Shown: positions 1 through 34,260 of the stretch, piece by piece | How the letters are laid out: every line of letters begins with the position of its first letter | Numbering within the stretch: the stretch's first letter is position 1 | From: Pseudomonadota bacterium | Lineage (GTDB): Bacteria > Bdellovibrionota > Bdellovibrionia > Bdellovibrionales > SG-bin7 | Direction: 5' to 3' | Assembly (NCBI GenBank): GCA_034439715.1 | Contig: JAWXAY010000049.1 | Location: forward strand, 1 to 41,295 | DNA length: 41,295 nt | Made by a program: the position numbers and the translations under genes | The notes under the pieces: generated by a model | What the model saw: the letters and a program-made list of their open reading frames with translations, nothing else | The model's database searches: none | Told to the model about the DNA's origin: nothing

Positions 1-900
1 CCCTCTGTATATATAAGTCAATTTGGCGTTTCCAAAGAGCGCATGGGCAAGTTCGCGCTGTGATCGGAGATTAAATGACCAGCCCACGTTGAGATAGATT
101 TCGTTCTCTAGACGAAACATTTCAAATTTGATCTTGTTAGCGAGAGTCTTTGCCCGGCCAAAATTGAAAGGCAGACCACGCCAATTCAAACCAATTATAC
201 CCATGATAAAAGGCGTCTCCGTTTTTTCGAAATAGTGCCATTCCGAAGACGAGGCGATGCCACGAAGGTGAAAAAATAATTGCAGGGTGAGTTCTGTATC
301 CTTGCAATTGTATTCGAGTAGGCTTGCCAAATTGGCCAATCGAATATTGCCATCGCCTATCGTTTCCCTAAAGCCCTTATGATCAATCGCCAAATATTCT
401 CGAGCGAGATACTTCAGCGAGTGACAGCGCTCCATTCGCGGATCAGCATGACTGATAAATTTATTGTTGCGCAACGCTCGCGACAAGGCTTGGGTATCGT
501 AGATTTTGCAGAAATCCTTTAGATTGAACCGATAGTTGCTTGGGTTAGCTCGAGCAGTGGGTAATATCTGATGATATCTCCTTAATAGCAGTGGCAGATC
601 AAATGCAGCATTGTGAAAGACAATTATCCCGGTGTAAGCCGGATTTAAAAGCGTGACCTGGATTGCTTTTTTAAAGATTCCGTCGGACGGTTCCGTCTTT
701 TGATCGAAGCGATCCAGGTGGAACGCGGCGGAGAAAATAGTTTTTCCCTCATCATAACTCCATCCGATGGATGCGGTAAGAATTTCTGTGTCTATTTCGA
801 GCCCGGTCGTTTCCACATCGATACTAATATATGGCGGTGGTTCTCGAATAAAATTTTGAAGATCGATGTCTCCTGCATTGATTTTACTTTGGGTTAACAT
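1..900 (-). CDS. Family A DNA polymerase, 3'-5' exonuclease domain plus start of polymerase domain (3'-truncated by window edge; not in ORF track)
   Basis: Hand translation from ATG at 900 (GAGGT SD just upstream) is open for 300 codons: MLTQSKINAG...ISIDVETTGLE (ExoI)...VFHNAAFDL (ExoII)...HSLKYLAREYL...YNCKDTELT (ExoIII)...LENEIYLNVGWSFNLRSQRELAHALF (PolA thumb-like motif). Confidence 0.9.
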   Translation of the reverse strand, partial: MLTQSKINAGDIDLQNFIREPPPYISIDVETTGLEIDTEILTASIGWSYDEGKTIFSAAFHLDRFDQKTEPSDGIFKKAIQVTLLNPAYTGIIVFHNAAFDLPLLLRRYHQILPTARANPSNYRFNLKDFCKIYDTQALSRALRNNKFISHADPRMERCHSLKYLAREYLAIDHKGFRETIGDGNIRLANLASLLEYNCKDTELTLQLFFHLRGIASSSEWHYFEKTETPFIMGIIGLNWRGLPFNFGRAKTLANKIKFEMFRLENEIYLNVGWSFNLRSQRELAHALFGNAKLTYIYRG

Positions 901-2497
901 CGAGAACCTCATTTCCATTATTATTTTGACTGCGCCGTTCGGCTAAAAATTCGATAAATTCCTTTAGTTCGTCTGGAGACGTATCTCCAAAAGCGTCATA
1001 TAGGGCTCGCCCCTTTTCCCTAATAACTTTATCTTCCAGATCTAGACTTTCAAAAACGGAGCGAAATACTTTATTGCAGAAGTCTTTAAAGGTGATTGGC
1101 TGTGGTGTGGGACCATATTTCTGTATTTCCTCAAGGACATTGAATTCCAAAATATTTTTGATACTAAAATAAATACGGTAACGGGGATGCTGTTCCACCT
1201 GACCAGAGCGAGATTTGAAAACCATCTTGCCTATAAATTCACTTTGATACCAATCGTTGAATTGCGCCGATGCATCCGTGAAGGTTGTCGTGCTCGCTGG
1301 CTTATAATCAGGAAAACCAAAATATTCGACCCGAAGGCCTATTGATTTGAGAAGCCGCCACCTAACACAATAGGAGAGCATGAAGCTCTTACGGACCCAG
1401 TCAAAATATGGCGAATCAAATTCGAGGTTGTTCATTGGCGACTCGTAATTCGGATCAATGTCTTTGCTTTTTACTTGAATGAACCCACCATGGTGAAAGG
1501 GCTTGATTCGCTTTAGATGACTCCGGGCGGAGAAGTACATAATCTGCGATTTATATTCAAATTCGGCGAGTCGCTTAATGTTTCGGGTATCGATGTTCCG
1601 TTGGTTGAACCTGAATGCGGGCAATCTTATATCGTGGGAAGTGGTTCGATCAATTTTCCATTCCTGATCGTTATCTTCGCCACGAGTTTGGGTTACTACA
1701 CCCTCGTCACGTGCGGCGGCCTCCGCTAATGCGACCACATGGTCAGAATCATAAATGTCCGTCCATTGATAAATTGGTTTTCCGTCGTAATCCGGAGGAT
1801 GCGATCTCAGCAGCCTTACATCTTCTATATATTCTTGATATTTCTCATGGAATACGGTGATCGCTTTGGTATCGGTCCCAAGTATTCGTACCAGCTCGTT
1901 TGCGCAAAAACCATATCGATAAATTGCGTGATCAAGGTTCGGTTTGAGCGGCTTGGCTTTGAGATCTGCTATTCCCATGAGGCCGCAAAAGAAATGATCT
2001 GAGATTGCTATCTTGTAGTCTCGATCCAGCTTTCTCCCTTCCTCTGATTGGGCTTTCCCAATGACATTGCGGAAGCGCTTAAAATCCTCGTAAGTGAGAG
2101 CGGAGTTTGCCATTAAAAGTAGTTTGAGTGAAAGCACGCGTGATAAATGGGAGTCAAGCTTACTCATTGACAGTTCCCTCATACGTGAAGAGTGCTCCTG
2201 GACTTGTTCCTTGGTTGCGTCGGAAAGCACAATGCAGTCAATATTCTGATTCGGATTATCAGCGTGAACCGTTTGATGACCTTTAAAGCACGCGTAATTT
2301 TCGACTAAAAAATATTGATTTTGATCTCGCCAGACGCGGATGTATTCCGTGAATGCATAGTCATGCAGGATTTCGATGTACCCCCTGACAATCTGTTCGT
2401 CGGCTGTGGCGACATTTGTAACTTCCAACGCATCAGGAGTAAGCTCCGGATCTATATGAATGGAATTGAGCGGGAGGAGATTGGTTTCAACTTTCAT
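884..2497 (-). CDS. Hypothetical protein with degenerate N-terminal ParB/Srx-like domain
   Basis: 537-aa ORF, ATGA-coupled to upstream gene. N-terminus LLPLNSIHIDPEL...IRVWRDQNQYFLVENYACF...IDCIVL follows the ParB N-domain pattern but lacks DGxHR. Confidence 0.55.
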   Translation of the reverse strand: MKVETNLLPLNSIHIDPELTPDALEVTNVATADEQIVRGYIEILHDYAFTEYIRVWRDQNQYFLVENYACFKGHQTVHADNPNQNIDCIVLSDATKEQVQEHSSRMRELSMSKLDSHLSRVLSLKLLLMANSALTYEDFKRFRNVIGKAQSEEGRKLDRDYKIAISDHFFCGLMGIADLKAKPLKPNLDHAIYRYGFCANELVRILGTDTKAITVFHEKYQEYIEDVRLLRSHPPDYDGKPIYQWTDIYDSDHVVALAEAAARDEGVVTQTRGEDNDQEWKIDRTTSHDIRLPAFRFNQRNIDTRNIKRLAEFEYKSQIMYFSARSHLKRIKPFHHGGFIQVKSKDIDPNYESPMNNLEFDSPYFDWVRKSFMLSYCVRWRLLKSIGLRVEYFGFPDYKPASTTTFTDASAQFNDWYQSEFIGKMVFKSRSGQVEQHPRYRIYFSIKNILEFNVLEEIQKYGPTPQPITFKDFCNKVFRSVFESLDLEDKVIREKGRALYDAFGDTSPDELKEFIEFLAERRSQNNNGNEVLDVNPK

Positions 2498-2820
2498 GTC
2501 GAGCCATTTCTAGACATGGTGTCTATCTTAATCCCTTTGGTTTTCTGCTCGACTGAATCATCGTTTTTCTTAAGAGGATTCCTTTCGTTAATTCTCTCAG
2601 CCATCGTGAAGATGTAATCAAAATAAGTGGACATCAAATTGGCATACACGCCGAAATCCTTAAATTCGAAATTAGGTTTCCTGGAATGCTTAGCCAAAAT
2701 GGCCATGCAATGGATATCGGCCATAAGCCTGTAAAATATTTTTCTGCACTCGAAAGTGGCTACTTCGATTTCAAGTAAATCCACATTGTCGTTATCAATA
2801 TATTTTTTCATTTTTTTCAT
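2494..2820 (-). CDS. Hypothetical protein (108 aa)
   Basis: ATGA overlaps at both ends, with the ATPase stop and the ParB-like start, support a real operon member. No recognisable motif. Confidence 0.7.
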   Translation of the reverse strand: MKKMKKYIDNDNVDLLEIEVATFECRKIFYRLMADIHCMAILAKHSRKPNFEFKDFGVYANLMSTYFDYIFTMAERINERNPLKKNDDSVEQKTKGIKIDTMSRNGST

Positions 2821-3881
2821 GATTGTACTTTCCCTTCGTACTGCCCACCTGGGCCGTTACCTTCACCATTGGATGCCTGTGTGATCGCCAATTGGGCTGG
2901 ATTTTTGGACTTTGTGCCGCGCCGCTGAGATGGGACGGGGGATTTGGGAAGAACGGCTTCAATTGCTGCCCTAAGATTATCGTCCACCATCTGGCATACA
3001 CCAGAGTCGCAGCCTTTCGTAATTTCTAGGCGCTTGCACAGATCAAAGTAGCTGCTGCGGGAGAGGCCCGTAAGTCGTGTAAATACCTGAACACGATCTG
3101 CCTTCGGCAAACTGGCGGCATCGCACATATCGATGATCGTACATATCAAACTATATTGAGGATCTGCTTCGACGAGATTTGCGACACCCGTTTCCCATGA
3201 ACTCGGAGAGCCTTTCATAATGGCCACGGCTTTTTCAAACAGCCTTAGATCAAAACCCGTGCATCCAGGATGCAGATGCTGGTTGAGATATTCGATCAGA
3301 GCTGTCATCTGAATCGGTTCAATCCCATATCTGTCGGGTACCTTAGCAAATTGATTGATAAGATATTTCTTCTCCTCAAAAGTCAGGGCGTAGCAATAGG
3401 CGAGAAGCCTGCTGGCGAGCGCCTGTGCGTGTGGAGATTCTTCGGAATCATATTGATTTGTTAGGATGATAACCTTTCCCTCAAAATCAAACTCCCGTAC
3501 CGGCAGACCTTCCCTCTTTAAGATCGCATCTGAAACATTAATCCTGATCGTCCGTTTCCCCGTTCGTGGATCAGGTGCAAGTACGCACTTAAATAATGTT
3601 TGAATCAGGCTATTTCGACTGTGAGAAGTGTCGTCGATAAGTATCAGTGCGTTCCGATTTTCATAAAGACTTCGAGCAAGGGCAAGGGGTGCATTATGAA
3701 GCGCGAATGGAACGTAATCGACGCCCGCTTCTTTGAGGATACCCTGAACCAAGCTGGTCTTCCCGTGACCCGCAGGCCCGTGGATACAGCTATTGCCGGA
3801 ACCTTTTACTGTCGCCATAATATTTTGATTTACGATTTCCCGTTTGTGATTAAGTGAGACCTCAGGATTAAGGTTTGCCAT
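2817..3881 (-). CDS. AAA+ P-loop ATPase with C-terminal HTH-like motif
   Basis: Walker A IHGPAGHGKT, Walker B LILIDD, sensor-1 IILTN, Arg finger ALASR, C-terminal FTRLTGLSRSSYF; GGAGG SD. Confidence 0.85.
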   Translation of the reverse strand: MANLNPEVSLNHKREIVNQNIMATVKGSGNSCIHGPAGHGKTSLVQGILKEAGVDYVPFALHNAPLALARSLYENRNALILIDDTSHSRNSLIQTLFKCVLAPDPRTGKRTIRINVSDAILKREGLPVREFDFEGKVIILTNQYDSEESPHAQALASRLLAYCYALTFEEKKYLINQFAKVPDRYGIEPIQMTALIEYLNQHLHPGCTGFDLRLFEKAVAIMKGSPSSWETGVANLVEADPQYSLICTIIDMCDAASLPKADRVQVFTRLTGLSRSSYFDLCKRLEITKGCDSGVCQMVDDNLRAAIEAVLPKSPVPSQRRGTKSKNPAQLAITQASNGEGNGPGGQYEGKVQS

Positions 3882-4215
3882 TGTTCATTTCCTCCGATTG
3901 ATTTTCATGTTTTCTTAGAATGTATTGCTTTGGACTGTTCTCACCTTTAACGGTGGATAATCGAAATAGGTGCCGCCCGTTAACGATCAAGCACTCGACA
4001 TTCATTTTACCGAGGACTCGCCCAACGGCTGCGTCAGCCACGTTTTGATAAAATCCGGAAATGCGGACCAGCGTGGCGATCTGGCTGAGCGTCAAATAGA
4101 TATCCGGTCGGTCCACATATAAAGTCGCGATTCGATAAGCTGCTTGCAGCAGTTTCCGTTCATCAACTTCTTTGCCATCCTTATAGTGATATGTGCGTGA
4201 TCGATTGTGAGCCAT
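3868..4215 (-). CDS. Small putative winged-helix DNA-binding protein, first gene of leftward operon
   Basis: AAGGAG SD. LTLSQIATLV...DAAVGRVLGKMNVECLIVNGRHLFRL resembles helix-helix-wing. Overlaps ATPase start. Confidence 0.6.
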   Translation of the reverse strand: MAHNRSRTYHYKDGKEVDERKLLQAAYRIATLYVDRPDIYLTLSQIATLVRISGFYQNVADAAVGRVLGKMNVECLIVNGRHLFRLSTVKGENSPKQYILRKHENQSEEMNNGKP

Positions 4216-4290
4216 CAGATCTCCTTTGGTTTGCCGTGATGAGATATCACTGAGCCCTCGAAGAAGTACTAAATCTGAATTCGGAAATAC

Positions 4291-4307
4291 CCCTGGCGCT
4301 TGCTACT
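4291..4307 (-). repeat. Left copy of 17-bp inverted repeat (minus strand AGTAGCAAGCGCCAGGG)
   Basis: CCCTGGCGCTTGCTACT at 4291-4307 is the exact reverse complement of 5383-5399. Confidence 0.95.
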
Positions 4308-4319
4308 TTTCAGAAACTT

Positions 4320-5387
4320 TTGGCCTGGCCCGTTCATTTAATATTGTGTAATCTGAGTGCTGTGAAAAAAAGCCGTATACCGAAATCTGATGAGTTCAAT
4401 TTCTTTGAGATTTTTGGGGGAGATCCAGAATCTTCTCCCTTTTCTGTATTTTGGCAGCTGGGTCCGAAGAAAAATCCTAAGAAAACGGTGCGGATATATC
4501 AGGAGTCTAGAAAGCTTGAGTTTCTGAAAGACCCTCTCACTAGAGAAATGCATGAATATACCGCCGGAGTGATGGGCGTACCATTTGACAGATACTTAAG
4601 AGGATTGATCGATTTTTGGATCGAGTATTTGTTAAGTCTGAACGATGTACCAAGAGCACAAAAACAACTAATTATTAAGGAGTCTAAGGCAGCTCCAGAG
4701 CACATTTTCCGGTATGGTGAAAATCTTGGCAAATATAAGATATTTCGGTTTTCAAATCGTCAGTTTTTGCCGTCTCAAATTTCGACCAATTTTATTTTAG
4801 ATAAGCGGGGAAAGGAAATTGAAGTCGAGCTGCGCCTTCCGAAAAATCTTGGCAAGGCTATCAATCAGCATTTTTCAAAAAACAAAAATGGCCCGTCCAT
4901 TCAAGTATTTTTGAGGCGCCTGTTTGAGCGATTTCTCATCGCTAATGGTTTGGAATATATTCAAATAGATTTTGATAAAAAATCACATGAGCATTTGGAG
5001 AATCAAATTCAAAGAATTTGCGAAATAAAAGCTTGGAAACCTTGTAAGTTTAAATCTCCGCCCATACTCAATACTGCTAAAGAGTTCGACCATGAATTTC
5101 TTGCCTGTAGCTATTTAATAGAACAATCCGTAGACCGCCTCATCGCCTTTAACAGGTGTGTTGAAATAAAGAAGGTGATCACGCTGAGGTCTGGGTACGA
5201 TCCCTTTAGAGTGGCTTTGCATTACATTTCATATGTATTTTGGAGTACTCCGAGCAGCTTCTTATCTCTTTTAGTTTTGCAGGAATATCGTGCTTTTGAC
5301 CGTGACGGATTTATTTTCATTTCTGAAAGACTTGGGGCGAAATCGATCAGTGCCTTCATAGAGAAAGTAATTGAATCAAAACAGTAG
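4320..5387 (+). CDS. Hypothetical protein with 3-4 ribbon-helix-helix-like modules (putative regulator); start may be GTG 4362
   Basis: RHH-like segments RKLEFLKDPLTREMHEYTAGVMGVPFDRYLRGLI, EVELRLPKNLGKAINQHFSKNKNGPSIQVFLRRLFERF and VITLRSGYDPFRVALHYISYVFWSTPSSFLSLLV. Stop TAG lies inside the right repeat. Confidence 0.6.
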   Translation: MAWPVHLILCNLSAVKKSRIPKSDEFNFFEIFGGDPESSPFSVFWQLGPKKNPKKTVRIYQESRKLEFLKDPLTREMHEYTAGVMGVPFDRYLRGLIDFWIEYLLSLNDVPRAQKQLIIKESKAAPEHIFRYGENLGKYKIFRFSNRQFLPSQISTNFILDKRGKEIEVELRLPKNLGKAINQHFSKNKNGPSIQVFLRRLFERFLIANGLEYIQIDFDKKSHEHLENQIQRICEIKAWKPCKFKSPPILNTAKEFDHEFLACSYLIEQSVDRLIAFNRCVEIKKVITLRSGYDPFRVALHYISYVFWSTPSSFLSLLVLQEYRAFDRDGFIFISERLGAKSISAFIEKVIESKQ

Positions 5388-5399
5388 CAAGCGCCAGGG
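5383..5399 (+). repeat. Right copy of 17-bp inverted repeat AGTAGCAAGCGCCAGGG
   Basis: Exact reverse complement of 4291-4307. Confidence 0.95.
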
Positions 5400-5432
5400 T
5401 TCATGTTTGCTGGAAGATAGTATTTTGAACTG

Positions 5433-5714
5433 GTGCATTGCAATTCAAAAAAAATCTGCTGTTCATGTAGCAGAGAATTATTTCTAACTGAATTTTATAC
5501 CAAAGGCCATGGTCGCTGGAGCGCCTCATGCCGTGCATGTGAACTTGCCAGAAAAAAAGAGCGATGGTTAAAAAATAAGCGAAAGAAGTCTCGGACTCGA
5601 AGTAAGAACGTCATCGATGTAGACATCTGTCAAATTTCTTTCAGCGGCAACCCTCATTGGGAAACGGTTGAGGAATATTTAAAGGATCTACTAAATGGCA
5701 CAAGCAAAGACTGA
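5433..5714 (+). CDS. Small basic zinc-ribbon protein (CxxC...CxxC)
   Basis: CCSC...FYTK...CRAC followed by a Lys/Arg-rich helix. Overlaps recombinase start by 20 nt. Confidence 0.7.
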   Translation: MHCNSKKICCSCSRELFLTEFYTKGHGRWSASCRACELARKKERWLKNKRKKSRTRSKNVIDVDICQISFSGNPHWETVEEYLKDLLNGTSKD

Positions 5715-7296
5715 CACTTCAAATTTAATTAAGAGAGTTGCCATTTTATGTAGGGCTTCGACTCAAGAGCTTGCAGAAGCAGAAACACTCCGGCAGCAAG
5801 AAAATATTTGCCGTGAGTACGCCGAATCACTTTCTAGACAAACCGGCATAACTCATAAAATTGTGCATATCTTGGTGGAAGAAGGCGTTAGTGGGGCTTC
5901 GAAAAAACGACCGAAATTTGAACAGCTAAAACATTTGATAAAAACGAAACAAATTGATGGGGTGATTACAAAGGAGCTTTCGCGCCTGAGCAGATCCCTT
6001 TCCAGTTTTGTGGCCTTCTGTAGCCTGTGCAAGCAGCATGGAGTTTTTTTACACATTACAAACCTTCCTGACCTAAATCCAAATACCGCTACAGGCTCTA
6101 TGGTTTTGTCCGTGCTTGCGTCTATGTCCGTTTTTGAAAGAGAGATTTGCATTGAGCGAGTGAAAGATACTCTTCGGTCGGCGGCCCTGCGGGATTCCAA
6201 AATCAATGGCGGTTCAGTGATTTATGGATTTCGTAGGCACGAAACTAAAAAGGGTTGTTGGGTACCAGACGAAGAGGAACTTAAGAATATTGAGTTTATG
6301 ATGAAGACTTTCATTGAAGTCGGCAGCATCACGAAAGCAATTAATATTTCCACAAAATATGGAATTCGTAATAAAAATGGAAACAAATTCGACTGTACGT
6401 CACTGAGAAAACTTTTTGAAAACCGAAAACTCGTAGGCGAACTACGAGTGGTTCATGGCGACAGCGACGAATTGGAAACTTTTGTTCCGCTCCCCTTTGG
6501 GGCGGTTGTTGAAACCACCCTATTTGAAAAGGTTCAGAAGCAACTGGCGGTCAATGATTCAGCAAGAGCAAATCTCAATCGACGTGGCAATAAAGTTTAT
6601 CTATTCACAGGCCTTCTTTATCACACCAATGGTGCATCCTATGCTGGCCAGTCCGCGATCTGTCGGAATGGTCAAAGAAAAAATTATTACTTCGAATCCG
6701 CAACTAAATCCCGAATTGATGCCGACAGGCTTGAAGAAAAAGTTCTTAAAGATTTATGCAAATCCATTGAAAGTGAAGTTGAACTTGAAAAGCACATCAA
6801 AACGATTTCAGACACCCGCGATAAGAAGGTGAATATTATCGCTTCTGAAATTAAACGTCGCCGGAGCGAGCTAGAAGATATCGCAAAGAAGGAGTTCGAC
6901 ATTGTGAAGGGAATATCTGCTCTGGGCACACAAGGATCGCCGACAACTTTGAAATGGCTGGAGGAGCAGGTTAACCTTGTTTCAAGGGCCAAGAACAACT
7001 GCGGTGAACGCTTGTCAGAGCTTGAGCAAGAAAGAGAGCAACTATTGAAAGCCGACGTGAATCTTAAAAAACACCAGAATCAGGCGTTGGAAATTTTTCG
7101 TCGAATGAAAAAAGCCGATCCCGTAAGACAGCGACAATTCCTTAGACAAGTGCTTGAAAAAGTTGAAATTTCCCCCTCGGGGGAGGTTCGTATAATTTGG
7201 AAATTTTCTGGAGTGTTCACCGGTCCGGAGGAAATGGTTGCGTCCGGACAAAATTGGCTCAGGAGGAGGGATTCGAACCCCCGACCAGCCGGTTAA
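5695..7296 (+). CDS. Large serine recombinase (integrase)
   Basis: Resolvase catalytic domain LCRAST, EEGVSGA..KRPKF, LSRLSR, ERE.I.ER; recombinase domain YGF; coiled coil; 533 aa. Confidence 0.95.
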   Translation: MAQAKTDTSNLIKRVAILCRASTQELAEAETLRQQENICREYAESLSRQTGITHKIVHILVEEGVSGASKKRPKFEQLKHLIKTKQIDGVITKELSRLSRSLSSFVAFCSLCKQHGVFLHITNLPDLNPNTATGSMVLSVLASMSVFEREICIERVKDTLRSAALRDSKINGGSVIYGFRRHETKKGCWVPDEEELKNIEFMMKTFIEVGSITKAINISTKYGIRNKNGNKFDCTSLRKLFENRKLVGELRVVHGDSDELETFVPLPFGAVVETTLFEKVQKQLAVNDSARANLNRRGNKVYLFTGLLYHTNGASYAGQSAICRNGQRKNYYFESATKSRIDADRLEEKVLKDLCKSIESEVELEKHIKTISDTRDKKVNIIASEIKRRRSELEDIAKKEFDIVKGISALGTQGSPTTLKWLEEQVNLVSRAKNNCGERLSELEQEREQLLKADVNLKKHQNQALEIFRRMKKADPVRQRQFLRQVLEKVEISPSGEVRIIWKFSGVFTGPEEMVASGQNWLRRRDSNPRPAG

Positions 7297-7329
7297 CAGC
7301 CGGCTGCTCTACCACTGAGCTACTCCTGA
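7255..7329 (-). tRNA. tRNA-Asn (GTT)
   Basis: Reverse complement TCAGGAGTAGCTCAGTGGTAGAGCAGCCGGCT-GTT-AACCGGCTGGTCGGGGGTTCGAATCCCTCCTCCTGAGCCA folds as a cloverleaf with encoded CCA. Confidence 0.97.
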
Positions 7330-31521: not shown

Positions 31522-34260
31522 TTAAGTAGCGCCATGACACTTTTTAAATTTCTTGCCGCTGCCGCATGGGCACGGGTCGTTTCTTCCAACCTTTGGCTGA
31601 TCTCTTGTTATGGGTTCCCGCGGCCCCTGGGGACCGGCCCCGCGGGAACCCTGACTTCCGTGATTCAGGCTCATTTGTTGCTGGGGCTGAGCTAGTGGCA
31701 TGAATGGCATTCCCGTCGCTGGACCCACTGGCGCTCCTTCAGCCGGATTATTGTAATTAAACTGCTCTTCATCAAATGTTTGATCGGGCTCCAGTTCATC
31801 AGCGGAAGCCGGCTTTTCTACGATTTGAACTTTCAGTAATTTTTCTAGAGTTTCATTCCTTGTCAAAATCTGCATTTGCTCAAAGGCTCTGAAGGCTTCT
31901 TTTTTGTATTCTATAAGGGGATCTTTTTGGCCGTAAGCTCTTAGGTTAATTCCTTCTTTTAAGTGATCCACTTGGGCAAGATGTTCTTTCCAGCGAGTAT
32001 CCATGGTCTGAAGTAATATCATTTTTTGCAGCTGAGCAAAGTAGGGTCCCAATTTTTCTTTTTGTTGATCAAAAGCCACCTTCACAGGAGACTTTACTAA
32101 CTCAACTAGTTTTTCGCTATTAAGATCAGCCGCCTTCGCAAACTCAATGGTCACACCGAACTGCTGCCCCAGAGCCAGAGCCAGTCCATCCAAATCCCAC
32201 TGCGACTTTTTGCCATCGACAGGAGCAAAGGTGTCTAACAAGTCAGAAACATTATCAGAAAGCATTTCGATAACAACTTCGTCTACATTGTTATTCTCTA
32301 ATATTCTTCGGCGAAGGCTATACACATAGGTTCTCTGTTGATTCATCACATCGTCATATTCTAAAAGATGCTTACGAATATCAAAATTATGTCCCTCTAC
32401 TTTTCGCTGAGCAGACTCAATGGCTCTGGTTACCATGCGTGCAGTAATCGGCTCATCGTCGGGCACTTTAAGTGTATTCATGATTCGCTGAAGTCTTTCA
32501 CCGTTAAAAATTCGCATGAGGCTATCTTCAAGAGAAAGAAAAAACTTAGAGGCTCCGGGGTCTCCCTGTCGGCCAGCGCGACCTCGCAACTGATTATCTA
32601 TTCGTCGAGATTCGTGGCGCTCAGTTCCAACTATATATAGGCCACCCGCTGCAATCACATCTTTTTTTTCTTGCTCCGTAACCTCACGATATTTTTCAAC
32701 GGATTTTTCAAACTCTTCGGGCGTGGCTGTCTTGTTTTCGAATTTCGCCAAAACTTCTGGGTTTCCACCGAGAAGAATATCTGTGCCTCTGCCGGCCATA
32801 TTTGTGGCAATCGTCACGTTCCCTTTTCTCCCGGCTTGCGCGATGATATCGGCTTCTCTCTCGTGATGTTTCGCATTCAAAACATTATGACGGATATTTA
32901 GATTTTTTAAAAATCGACCCAACAATTCACTTTTCTCAATGCTCGCTGTCCCCACAAGGCACGGCTGGCCGGCCGCTGTGCGAGTTTTAATATCTTCAAC
33001 GATTGCTTTAAATTTGGCGTTCTCGGTTTTGTATACAACGTCCTCGTGATCAGTTCGGTGAATGGGTTTGTTTGTGGGAATAGCTACTACTTCTAACTTA
33101 TAAATCTTTTTAAATTCAACGGCCTCGGTCTCTGCTGTACCGGTCATGCCTGAAAGTTTTTTGTACATTCTAAAAAAGTTTTGAAAAGTAATTGTGGCCA
33201 AGGTTTGATTCTCATTTTTAACCTTAACGCCTTCTTTGGCCTCAATGGCTTGGTGAAGGCCGTCGCTCCAACGCCTGCCAGGCATGAGGCGCCCGGTAAA
33301 TTCATCAACGATAACGATTTCTCCGTCTTTGATCATGTAATCGACATCAAGTTTATAGAGATGGTGTGCTTTCAAGCCCTGATAAACATGGTGAAGAAGT
33401 TCAATGTGTTTTGGATCGTAGAGATTGTCGATACCCAATAGTTCTTCAACTTTAGAGTTTCCCTCATCAGTCAAAGAAGCCGTGCGGGATTTTTCTTCCA
33501 TTATATAATGTTTCTCTTTTACTAAATGAGGAACTATTTTGTTAACTGTGTTGTATTTTTGGGTTGATCCTTCTGAGGGGCCCGAAATAATAAGGGGTGT
33601 TCTAGCTTCATCCACTAAAATGGAGTCACACTCATCGACGATAGCAAAATTGAGCACGCGTTGGACATAGTCATCAATGTTGAATTTCATGTTATCACGG
33701 AGGTAATCAAATCCGTACTCGTTGTTCGTGCCGTACGTTATATCTGAATTATATGAAACTTTTCTTTGCTGATCTGAAAGCTCGTGCACAATAATTCCCA
33801 CGCTTAGACCCAAAAAATTATAAAGGCGACCCATCCATTCTGAGTCCCTTTTCGCCAAATAATCATTCACAGTAACTACGTGAACGCCATTTCCGCTAAG
33901 TGCATTTAAATATACCGGTAACGTGGCAACGAGAGTTTTCCCTTCTCCCGTTTTCATTTCTGAAATAGAACCTCGATGTAGAGTAATACCCCCAATTAAC
34001 TGTACGTCATAATGTCGCATCCGCAATACACGCGTTGAGGCCTCGCGACAAACTGCAAAAGCTTCGGGTAAAACATCATCAAGCGAAGCGCCATTGGCAA
34101 TTTTTTGCTTAAATTCCAACGTCTTCGCTTTTAGCTGATCATCGGTAAGAGCTTTTATTTGGGGCTCTAGCGCATTAATGGCCGCGACTATAGGTTGAAG
34201 CTTCTTAATATCTCGTTCGTGTTTGGTGCCAATTATTTTTGTGATAAACTTTGCAAACAT
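31522..34260 (-). CDS. secA: Preprotein translocase ATPase SecA
   Basis: [53 protein letters not shown]. Confidence 0.99.

Follow-up and report, generated by a model that had tools for sequence, protein, structure and literature searches.

The stretch of DNA analyzed here (the window; 41,295 nucleotides [nt]) is the start of contig C49 (JAWXAY010000049.1) of a Bdellovibrionota genome, GCA_034439715.1 (G000; 3.26-Mb assembly, 95.7% complete), and its first 7,329 nt hold one end of an integrated island. There, a gene for a large serine recombinase (LSR) meets a tRNA-Asn gene, and a divergent operon leads away from it through two small open reading frames (ORFs), an AAA+-type ATPase gene, and a ParB-like gene to the start of a family A DNA polymerase gene (Table 1). 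Adjacent operon frames share 14, 4, 4, and up to 35 nt. The initial annotation had placed these ORFs, their overlaps, and the tRNA correctly, and family scans support its LSR, PolA exonuclease, and P-loop ATPase. It had missed two plus-strand ORFs between the operon and the LSR, of 355 and 93 amino acids (aa), and the fact that the LSR frame runs through the core of the attachment site (att) into the tRNA.

Table 1. Features of the first 7,329 nt of the window.
Feature	Position	Strand	Remark
PolA, N-terminal third (3'-5' exonuclease, thumb start)	1..918	-	Remainder at G000:C46:1-1839(+)
ParB-like protein, 537 aa; predicted N-terminal ParB/Srx fold and conserved helical C-terminal part	884..2497	-	From fold search
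108-aa ORF	2494..2820	-	Other islands have a 116-145-aa ORF at the same place, homology not detected
AAA+-type ATPase, 354 aa, C-terminal HTH-like motif	2817..3881	-	phrog_1250 family, 6e-11
115-aa ORF	3868..4215	-	No family match
20-bp inverted repeat, 19/20	4291..4310 and 5380..5399	.	Brackets 355-aa ORF
355-aa ORF (341 aa as called in database)	4320..5387	+	Common only to the G385 island
Cys4 zinc-finger protein, 93 aa	5433..5714	+	Overlaps LSR start; four Cys invariant in 6 copies
LSR, 533 aa when integrated	5695..7296	+	Last 13 codons from tRNA antisense strand
attP arm, element side	7233..7245	.	Inverted partner G000:C10:17707-17719; 13-mer present twice in genome
att core, 13 bp, tRNA 3' end	7250..7262	.	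Far copy G000:C10:17731-17743; putative crossover at TC 7259-7260
tRNA-Asn(GTT), intact target	7255..7329	-	95-97% identical to tRNA-Asn of three family members

Because the window begins at the edge of its contig, the missing part of the element had to come from other contigs. The ends of C49 and C46 overlap by 15 nt, in frame with PolA, and the join is crossed by a public 44-kb contig (L082) with 100% identity over 15,654 bp. The assembly is then broken by a multicopy insertion sequence (IS) at G000:C46:4693-4789 (ends C19, C61, C68 / C10, C3, C76, C80, C32), which we take to be IS66-like from its hallmarks only. An 8-bp unique target duplication pairs left with right ends of the IS in 4/4 cases (scaffolding C19-C3, C46-C10, C61-C80, and C68-C76), and the end of C46 is paired with the start of C10. 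The IS transposase is unassembled; a PF03050 search found just a fragment at an unrelated place. The rebuilt element spans three contigs (C49, C46, and C10) and 29,577 bp without the IS interior. A 13-bp repeat of the tRNA-Asn 3' end marks its two boundaries. The initial annotation had pointed leftward for a second att in the form of a tRNA-Asn fragment; this repeat lies there on C10, but a genome search found no long tRNA-fragment repeat, the repeat proper being 13 bp. Around the TC dinucleotide, the putative attP is symmetric over 13 consecutive pairs; attB shows no such symmetry.

Beyond the operon, C46 supplies the remainder of PolA and, besides it, a tyrosine recombinase, a 276-aa ORF, an XRE repressor, a small P-loop gene, and the IS end. 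The part on C10 carries TerC, UPF0114, SPFH, DoxX, two LysR, HPF, HtpX, DedA, M23, an amidohydrolase, P-II with SbtA, DUF6671, and the IetAS pair; TerC, SbtA, and IetAS represent stress or defense cargo. The bicarbonate transporter SbtA and its P-II partner, with DUF6671 and LysR, occupy G000:C10:9803-12940, in what is presumably a heterotrophic predator lineage. We found no head, packaging, connector, or tail PHROGs among the rebuilt-element ORFs (IS interior unassembled), and no match to terminase, capsid, or portal among them. Pfam scans of the G000 element gave no type IV secretion system (T4SS), coupling protein, or relaxase; VirB4-like genes occur elsewhere in the genome in 4/4 carriers. 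Thus, the absence of phage structural and conjugation modules, which the initial annotation had noted for the visible end, extends to the rest of the element. Its view of an integrated element rather than core genome also stands: the PolA family is present in 4/384 genomes of the order, and host Pol I is encoded separately, on C12, with similarity to the element PolA over just 78 residues at 29%.

The whole PolA is 907 to 913 aa long (a 907-aa protein is in the database, P0151), within a range of 870 to 960 aa for this enzyme type. The exonuclease domain matches PF01612 (1.1e-11), and exonuclease motifs I to III are kept in 8/8 full-length copies. A search with the C-terminal half returned nine proteins, including itself, at 39 to 85% identity; the catalytic Asp (motif A), the Arg, Lys, and Tyr (motif B), the Arg of motif 2, the Gln of motif 6, and the Asp of motif C are invariant in all 9 aligned homologues. 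With a Klenow fold and motifs A (Asp), B (RxxxK...Y), and C (Asp), TGR, and motif 6 all present, the protein belongs to family A. Its model (pLDDT 81, pTM 0.81) matches Pol I Klenow/Bst fragments with an E value of 1e-20 at 13 to 14% identity, and phage PolAs match no better. Between the GR hairpin and motif 6, the fingers carry an insertion of about 170 aa, partly beta-rich, for which we found no PDB sequence match. Position B3 (Klenow 762) is Leu in 8/9 homologues; Leu there is common to several unrelated PolA clusters and is not a lifestyle marker (PMC10201439). Searches of 72,556 plasmids and of 50,697 phages with the element PolA gave partial matches only, at 23 to 26%. On sequence grounds, we conclude that it is a previously undescribed, very divergent PolA lineage and an island backbone gene, with predicted synthesis activity. 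In G613, another carrier, a third PolA-like gene lies on C15.

The initial annotation had called the gene directly upstream ParB-like. This label has no Pfam, PHROG, or NCBIfam match behind it but agrees with the predicted fold of residues 1 to 115, from which alone the name derives: this segment aligns to PadC (VIA Z 9.9, root mean square deviation 2.6, 98 aligned), and the top Foldseek rows are all ParB/Noc/Srx, yet with E > 0.001. The mean pLDDT of the model is 53. The canonical GxxR arginine-patch CTP motif is absent from the 4 aligned copies, and no ParA-type gene common to the islands was found.

The two genes travel together. We found the ParB-like gene in 3/401 genomes sampled from the phylum, which adds G613 and G640 to the carriers, and it stands directly upstream of PolA in 5/5 islands showing both (G000, G125, G161, G070, and G613; the G640 contig ends first). 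Two genomes carry double ids (G125 = G384; G161 = G385). Islands with the pair always adjoin an LSR and a tRNA end, be it tRNA-Asn, -Glu, or -Asp, and they use two LSR types; the G070 island has the other type and sits at tRNA-Glu/Lys. Island size is 20 to 30 kb in four copies. The G385 gene order equals that of G000 from the LSR to DUF6671, minus the ATPase. When four islands were compared all against all, only the ParB-like gene, PolA, the tyrosine recombinase, and XRE were common to them, and the last two are also found in islands without PolA. The place of the pair is filled differently in sister islands. At G385:C4, where the LSR is 45% identical to that of the G070 PolA island, a Prim-Pol/DUF927 gene comes next, in the PolA slot, and a second G385 island has a RepB-primase/DUF927 gene in the corresponding slot. 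It is mainly because primase-helicases replace the pair in the same slot that we propose a replication role for ParB-like plus PolA. After PolA, a 417-aa ORF follows in G384 and G070, that is, in 2/4 islands where the place is visible; its Rep_trans/Phage_CRI label is a lead only (atlas TM 0.33 to 0.38; no Pfam, PHROG, or NCBIfam match). In the literature searched, mainly openly readable papers, we found no description of a ParB-like plus full-length PolA module in LSR islands, nor of this PolA lineage or the partner protein by itself.

These observations favor, with a probability of roughly 0.55, a cargo-carrying integrative island of Bdellovibrionota in which the ParB-like protein and the family A polymerase fill the replication slot. 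We infer replication itself, which the initial annotation had also suggested, from gene slot and conservation only. Several findings weigh against this reading. Pfam and PHROG scans of the element ORFs gave no family match to a primase. No D5/Cch2 or DUF927 helicase was found among the ORFs scanned, and the same scans do detect DUF927 in sister islands. The sole helicase candidate, a DnaB_C-like P-loop protein of 171 aa, has an E of 8e-6 over 36 residues in G385; its gene is interrupted by the IS in G000 and missing from both G384 and G070. A search for an iteron-like origin was negative. Motif A (DISGLD) and motif C (HDQ) deviate from the Pol I consensus. In G161, which is 94% complete, we detected no canonical Pol I, whereas the other four carriers have one; this would fit a host-serving role of the island PolA, or mere incompleteness. 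Even for the staphylococcal cassette chromosome (SCC), replication itself is reported as not shown in vivo (PMC7581432).

The initial annotation had proposed looking for attP junctions and raised coverage. At least half of the sequence words are present in 8 of the 24 sequencing runs listed, all from microbial mat and three of them possibly the source. We checked depth and junctions in four contig sets, from which rare variants are lost. At least two of these sets include contigs that cross the junction on the tRNA side. Neither sign of a free form emerged clearly, again to the detriment of a replicating island: element and flank depth are equal in 3/4 runs (12/12, 14/14, and about 6-9.5/9), and no attP/attB circle junction was present among the loose contig ends listed for the four sets. 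In run X6 the element is about twofold above the flank, but it carries variant letters there. These data neither show nor exclude rare excision.

A plain integrative, passively replicated island, with PolA and the ParB-like protein as cargo for repair, gap filling, or anti-phage activity, would account for the missing primase and helicase and for the depth that is not raised. Auxiliary cellular PolAs with Leu at B3 are indeed known (APEX and CHEAPs; PMC10201439), the islands do carry defense cargo such as IetAS, and Leu is the usual B3 residue here. However, the pair lies in the conserved backbone beside the recombinase, in the slot of primase-helicases and not in variable cargo, and PADLOC matched neither the ParB-like protein nor the neighbors scanned (the polymerase was left out of the scan). 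We regard this alternative as rather unlikely, though worth keeping in mind.

The initial annotation had also considered a satellite or an unusual prophage, and neither fits an element devoid of capsid, terminase, and portal. A phage satellite or helper-dependent element packaged in foreign capsids would explain the tRNA-end integrase, repressor, and polymerase, a layout resembling phage-inducible chromosomal islands and tycheposons, as well as the island size. We consider it improbable, as PF03237 is present in 0/4 carrier genomes and pattern-based, and hence weak, IMG/VR scans confirmed no relatives of PolA, the ParB-like protein, or the ATPase. Still less probable is a prophage that has decayed through loss of its structural genes. 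It would draw on the stand-alone exonuclease-plus-polymerase PolA without 5' nuclease, which is typical of phages by fold matches, and on the M23 peptidase, which matches endolysin profiles; however, M23 is accompanied by a dihydroorotase-like gene in two islands, no relative exceeded 80% coverage among the phage records, and virion genes are missing from all four copies that are bounded or nearly so, which come from different genera and have an intact backbone. The prophage explanation is thus largely refuted already.

The recombinase has a property of its own. The LSR matches PF00239 (1e-25), PF07508 (2.6e-7), and phrog_95 (4e-69), and the att core lies 13 codons ahead of its stop, so attP is inside the LSR gene. 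Modeled excision joins the two ends in frame and yields a 687-aa LSR, to which a 167-aa tail with a helix-turn-helix (HTH) and a recombinase domain is added. The test covered 17 LSR/tail pairs, each on one contig, and 7 of these pairs had served to build the profiles; G217:C25 had been dropped beforehand, its genes not being in island order. In 16/17 pairs the core lay at the 3' end of a tRNA (Asn, Asp, or Ala) or, in tandem arrays, at the duplicate of that end; the pair at G327:C19 had no scorable core. In these 16 islands the LSR always points outward across att, and fusion is in frame in 16/16. All three codon phases are used at the core (3, 7, and 6 islands), and the tail is always that of the island's own LSR; in tandem arrays, the frame is lost in two cross pairs. 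Shuffling gave in-frame fusion in 0/200,000 cases. On the LSR tree the phase switches just two times, which reduces the independent evidence to three lineages instead of sixteen. Between the core and the HTH, 5/16 islands have no ATG, GTG, or TTG. A natural 683-aa LSR-tail fusion exists (P0168), as does a truncated one in the tandem array at G115:C43. Our best guess is that the tail provides extra attP-side DNA binding that favors integration; artificial integrase fusions to a recombination directionality factor (RDF) favor excision (PMC12286644).

Tandem LSR-island arrays stand at tRNA-Asn at G384:C13:137144-175990, G385:C3:49765-104461, and G115:C43:2705-23929. Array neighbors of different codon phase are unfused, and one same-phase neighbor is a chromosomal LSR-tail fusion. 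The HTH plus recombinase-domain tail profile matches 177/384 genomes of the order at E <= 1e-12, many of them partially, and islands with a split LSR may thus be one of the main island types in the order.

The remaining operon genes are less constant. The initial annotation had counted the ATPase and a winged helix-turn-helix protein as module members. The latter label, for the 115-aa ORF, could not be confirmed by any Pfam, PHROG, or NCBIfam match, and we did not find the ATPase in the other PolA islands examined. Of the proposed co-occurrence of PolA, ATPase, and LSR, then, PolA and LSR recur, with the ParB-like gene, and the ATPase does not. Its Walker A/B motifs, sensor Asn, and Ser-Arg are invariant in 17 aligned homologues. 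Long matches (E < 1e-15) occur in 24 other genomes of 384, and none of 14 loci inspected among them has a PolA or ParB-like gene beside it; we therefore rejected the ATPase as an element marker. In the order, phrog_1250-like ATPases recur beside response-regulator/periplasmic-binding/kinase clusters and, by eye, T4SS-like genes (L063-L076).

Ahead of these LSRs the 93-aa Cys4 protein is conserved, with a weak match to phage endonuclease N termini. Judged by sequence, it is a candidate directionality factor or regulator, and a better RDF candidate than the LSR tail. The 355-aa ORF has four database relatives, itself included. The 20-bp inverted pair around it arose in 0/200 Markov shuffles, and an inverted pair (14/16) likewise surrounds its G385 homologue (L100:4703-5737), the GTAGCA core being similar. 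The ORF and its repeats may be an invertible cassette or a very small mobile unit; operator sites are a further possibility. Homology to the 417-aa Rep-like ORF was rejected (hhalign probability of 0.3%).

Other island material lies nearby. A Gp49-like toxin-antitoxin-type pair stands beyond the att boundary (G000:C10:19426-20168; L077/L078) and is 91 to 97% identical to a pair in a tRNA-Asn island of G002, another genus (L025:3732-4468), which suggests older island material outside the element. A 58-nt stretch after the tyrosine recombinase (G000:C46:2894-2948) is 83% identical to G000:C83:4654-4711, upstream of a truncated LSR island (L079); it is a possible recombination site or terminator. 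Another G000 island is marked by a tRNA-Ser 3' fragment duplicated 14 kb from the gene (C98:19433-19451 and 33717-33735).

If the ParB-like protein and PolA do replicate the island, its cycle could run as follows. Crossing over at the TC dinucleotide, the LSR would integrate and excise the island. Excision would rebuild the 687-aa LSR, and the circle and the integrated copy would make different enzymes. The free circle would be replicated by the proofreading polymerase that the island encodes; the ParB-like protein would be its origin-binding, clamp-like, or partition partner, with priming from a nick (by the Rep_trans-like gene), by host primase, or by the polymerase itself. The tyrosine recombinase may resolve circle dimers, and cell-to-cell transfer would depend on a helper. 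A bolder version, which we hold to be doubtful, is a two-protein replicase without primase or helicase. There, the fingers insertion would be a template-binding or strand-displacing module, as MP acts in trans for CCPol of SCC, the ParB-like protein an origin loader or sliding clamp, and the att-split LSR a state switch with a different recombinase on the circle.

The PolA module here stands without the helicase that accompanies every characterized island-borne PolA, and the island would be a small, directly testable system for the replication of such islands. The polymerase is a candidate proofreading or self-priming enzyme for biotechnology. The precise att sites come with full-length tRNA-targeting LSRs, for which chromosome annotation would yield truncated clones.

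Pipolins and casposons are integrative elements with their own polymerase, and the likeness to the element includes defense cargo; however, their polymerase is of family B and not homologous to the element PolA. The initial annotation had taken island polymerases to be of family B only. This premise is wrong: SCC (PMC7581432) and the TV-Pols (PMC2579912) are family A precedents. SCC pattern 2 (CCPol-MP-Cch2 with CcrC) pairs an LSR with a family A polymerase (Bebel 2020, PMC7581432; Rice 2023, PMC10061031). Like SCC, the element is an LSR-integrated, capsid-less, nonconjugative cargo island with a family A polymerase operon in its core, and the best NCBIfam matches of its LSR include CcrB (1.7e-18, below cutoff). 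In contrast, CCPol is without most of the exonuclease and needs an OB-fold single-stranded DNA-binding partner and a D5 helicase, whereas the element PolA is full length with intact proofreading motifs and the fingers insertion, and has a ParB-like partner and a tRNA-end target. As to an OB-fold partner, the small element ORFs gave no match in sequence-family scans. The TV-Pols, of superfamily A, lie beside resolvases or lambda-type integrases and have a proposed replicative role (Iyer 2008, PMC2579912). They are 400 to 600 aa, never nuclease linked in that account, and tied to D5, whereas the element enzyme carries its own 3'-5' exonuclease.

Tycheposons combine a tRNA-targeting integrase (tyrosine or LSR), an optional polymerase/primase/helicase module, and cargo (bioRxiv 10.1101/2020.12.28.424599). 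The element shares with them the lack of capsid and conjugation genes, adaptive cargo, and the tRNA target. However, their integrase points inward and is mostly a lineage-specific tyrosine recombinase, whereas the element LSR points outward across att; the tycheposon hallmark profiles may list PolA. In the ssrA islands of Dehalococcoides, DsiB is a CcrB-like LSR of about 540 aa whose 3' end overlaps att (McMurdie 2011, PMC3146451), and the authors suggested that DsiB is whole only in the circular form or when another island adjoins (PMC3146451). A ParBc gene in the module, tandem arrays, and the character of an integrative and mobilizable element add to this likeness; the target, however, is ssrA, and the accessible account describes no family A polymerase and no defined 150-185-aa HTH plus recombinase-domain tail. 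Thus, the element is a real, rare variant of the polymerase-carrying LSR islands, a kind already known, and it is set apart from each known kind by that kind's own defining tests.

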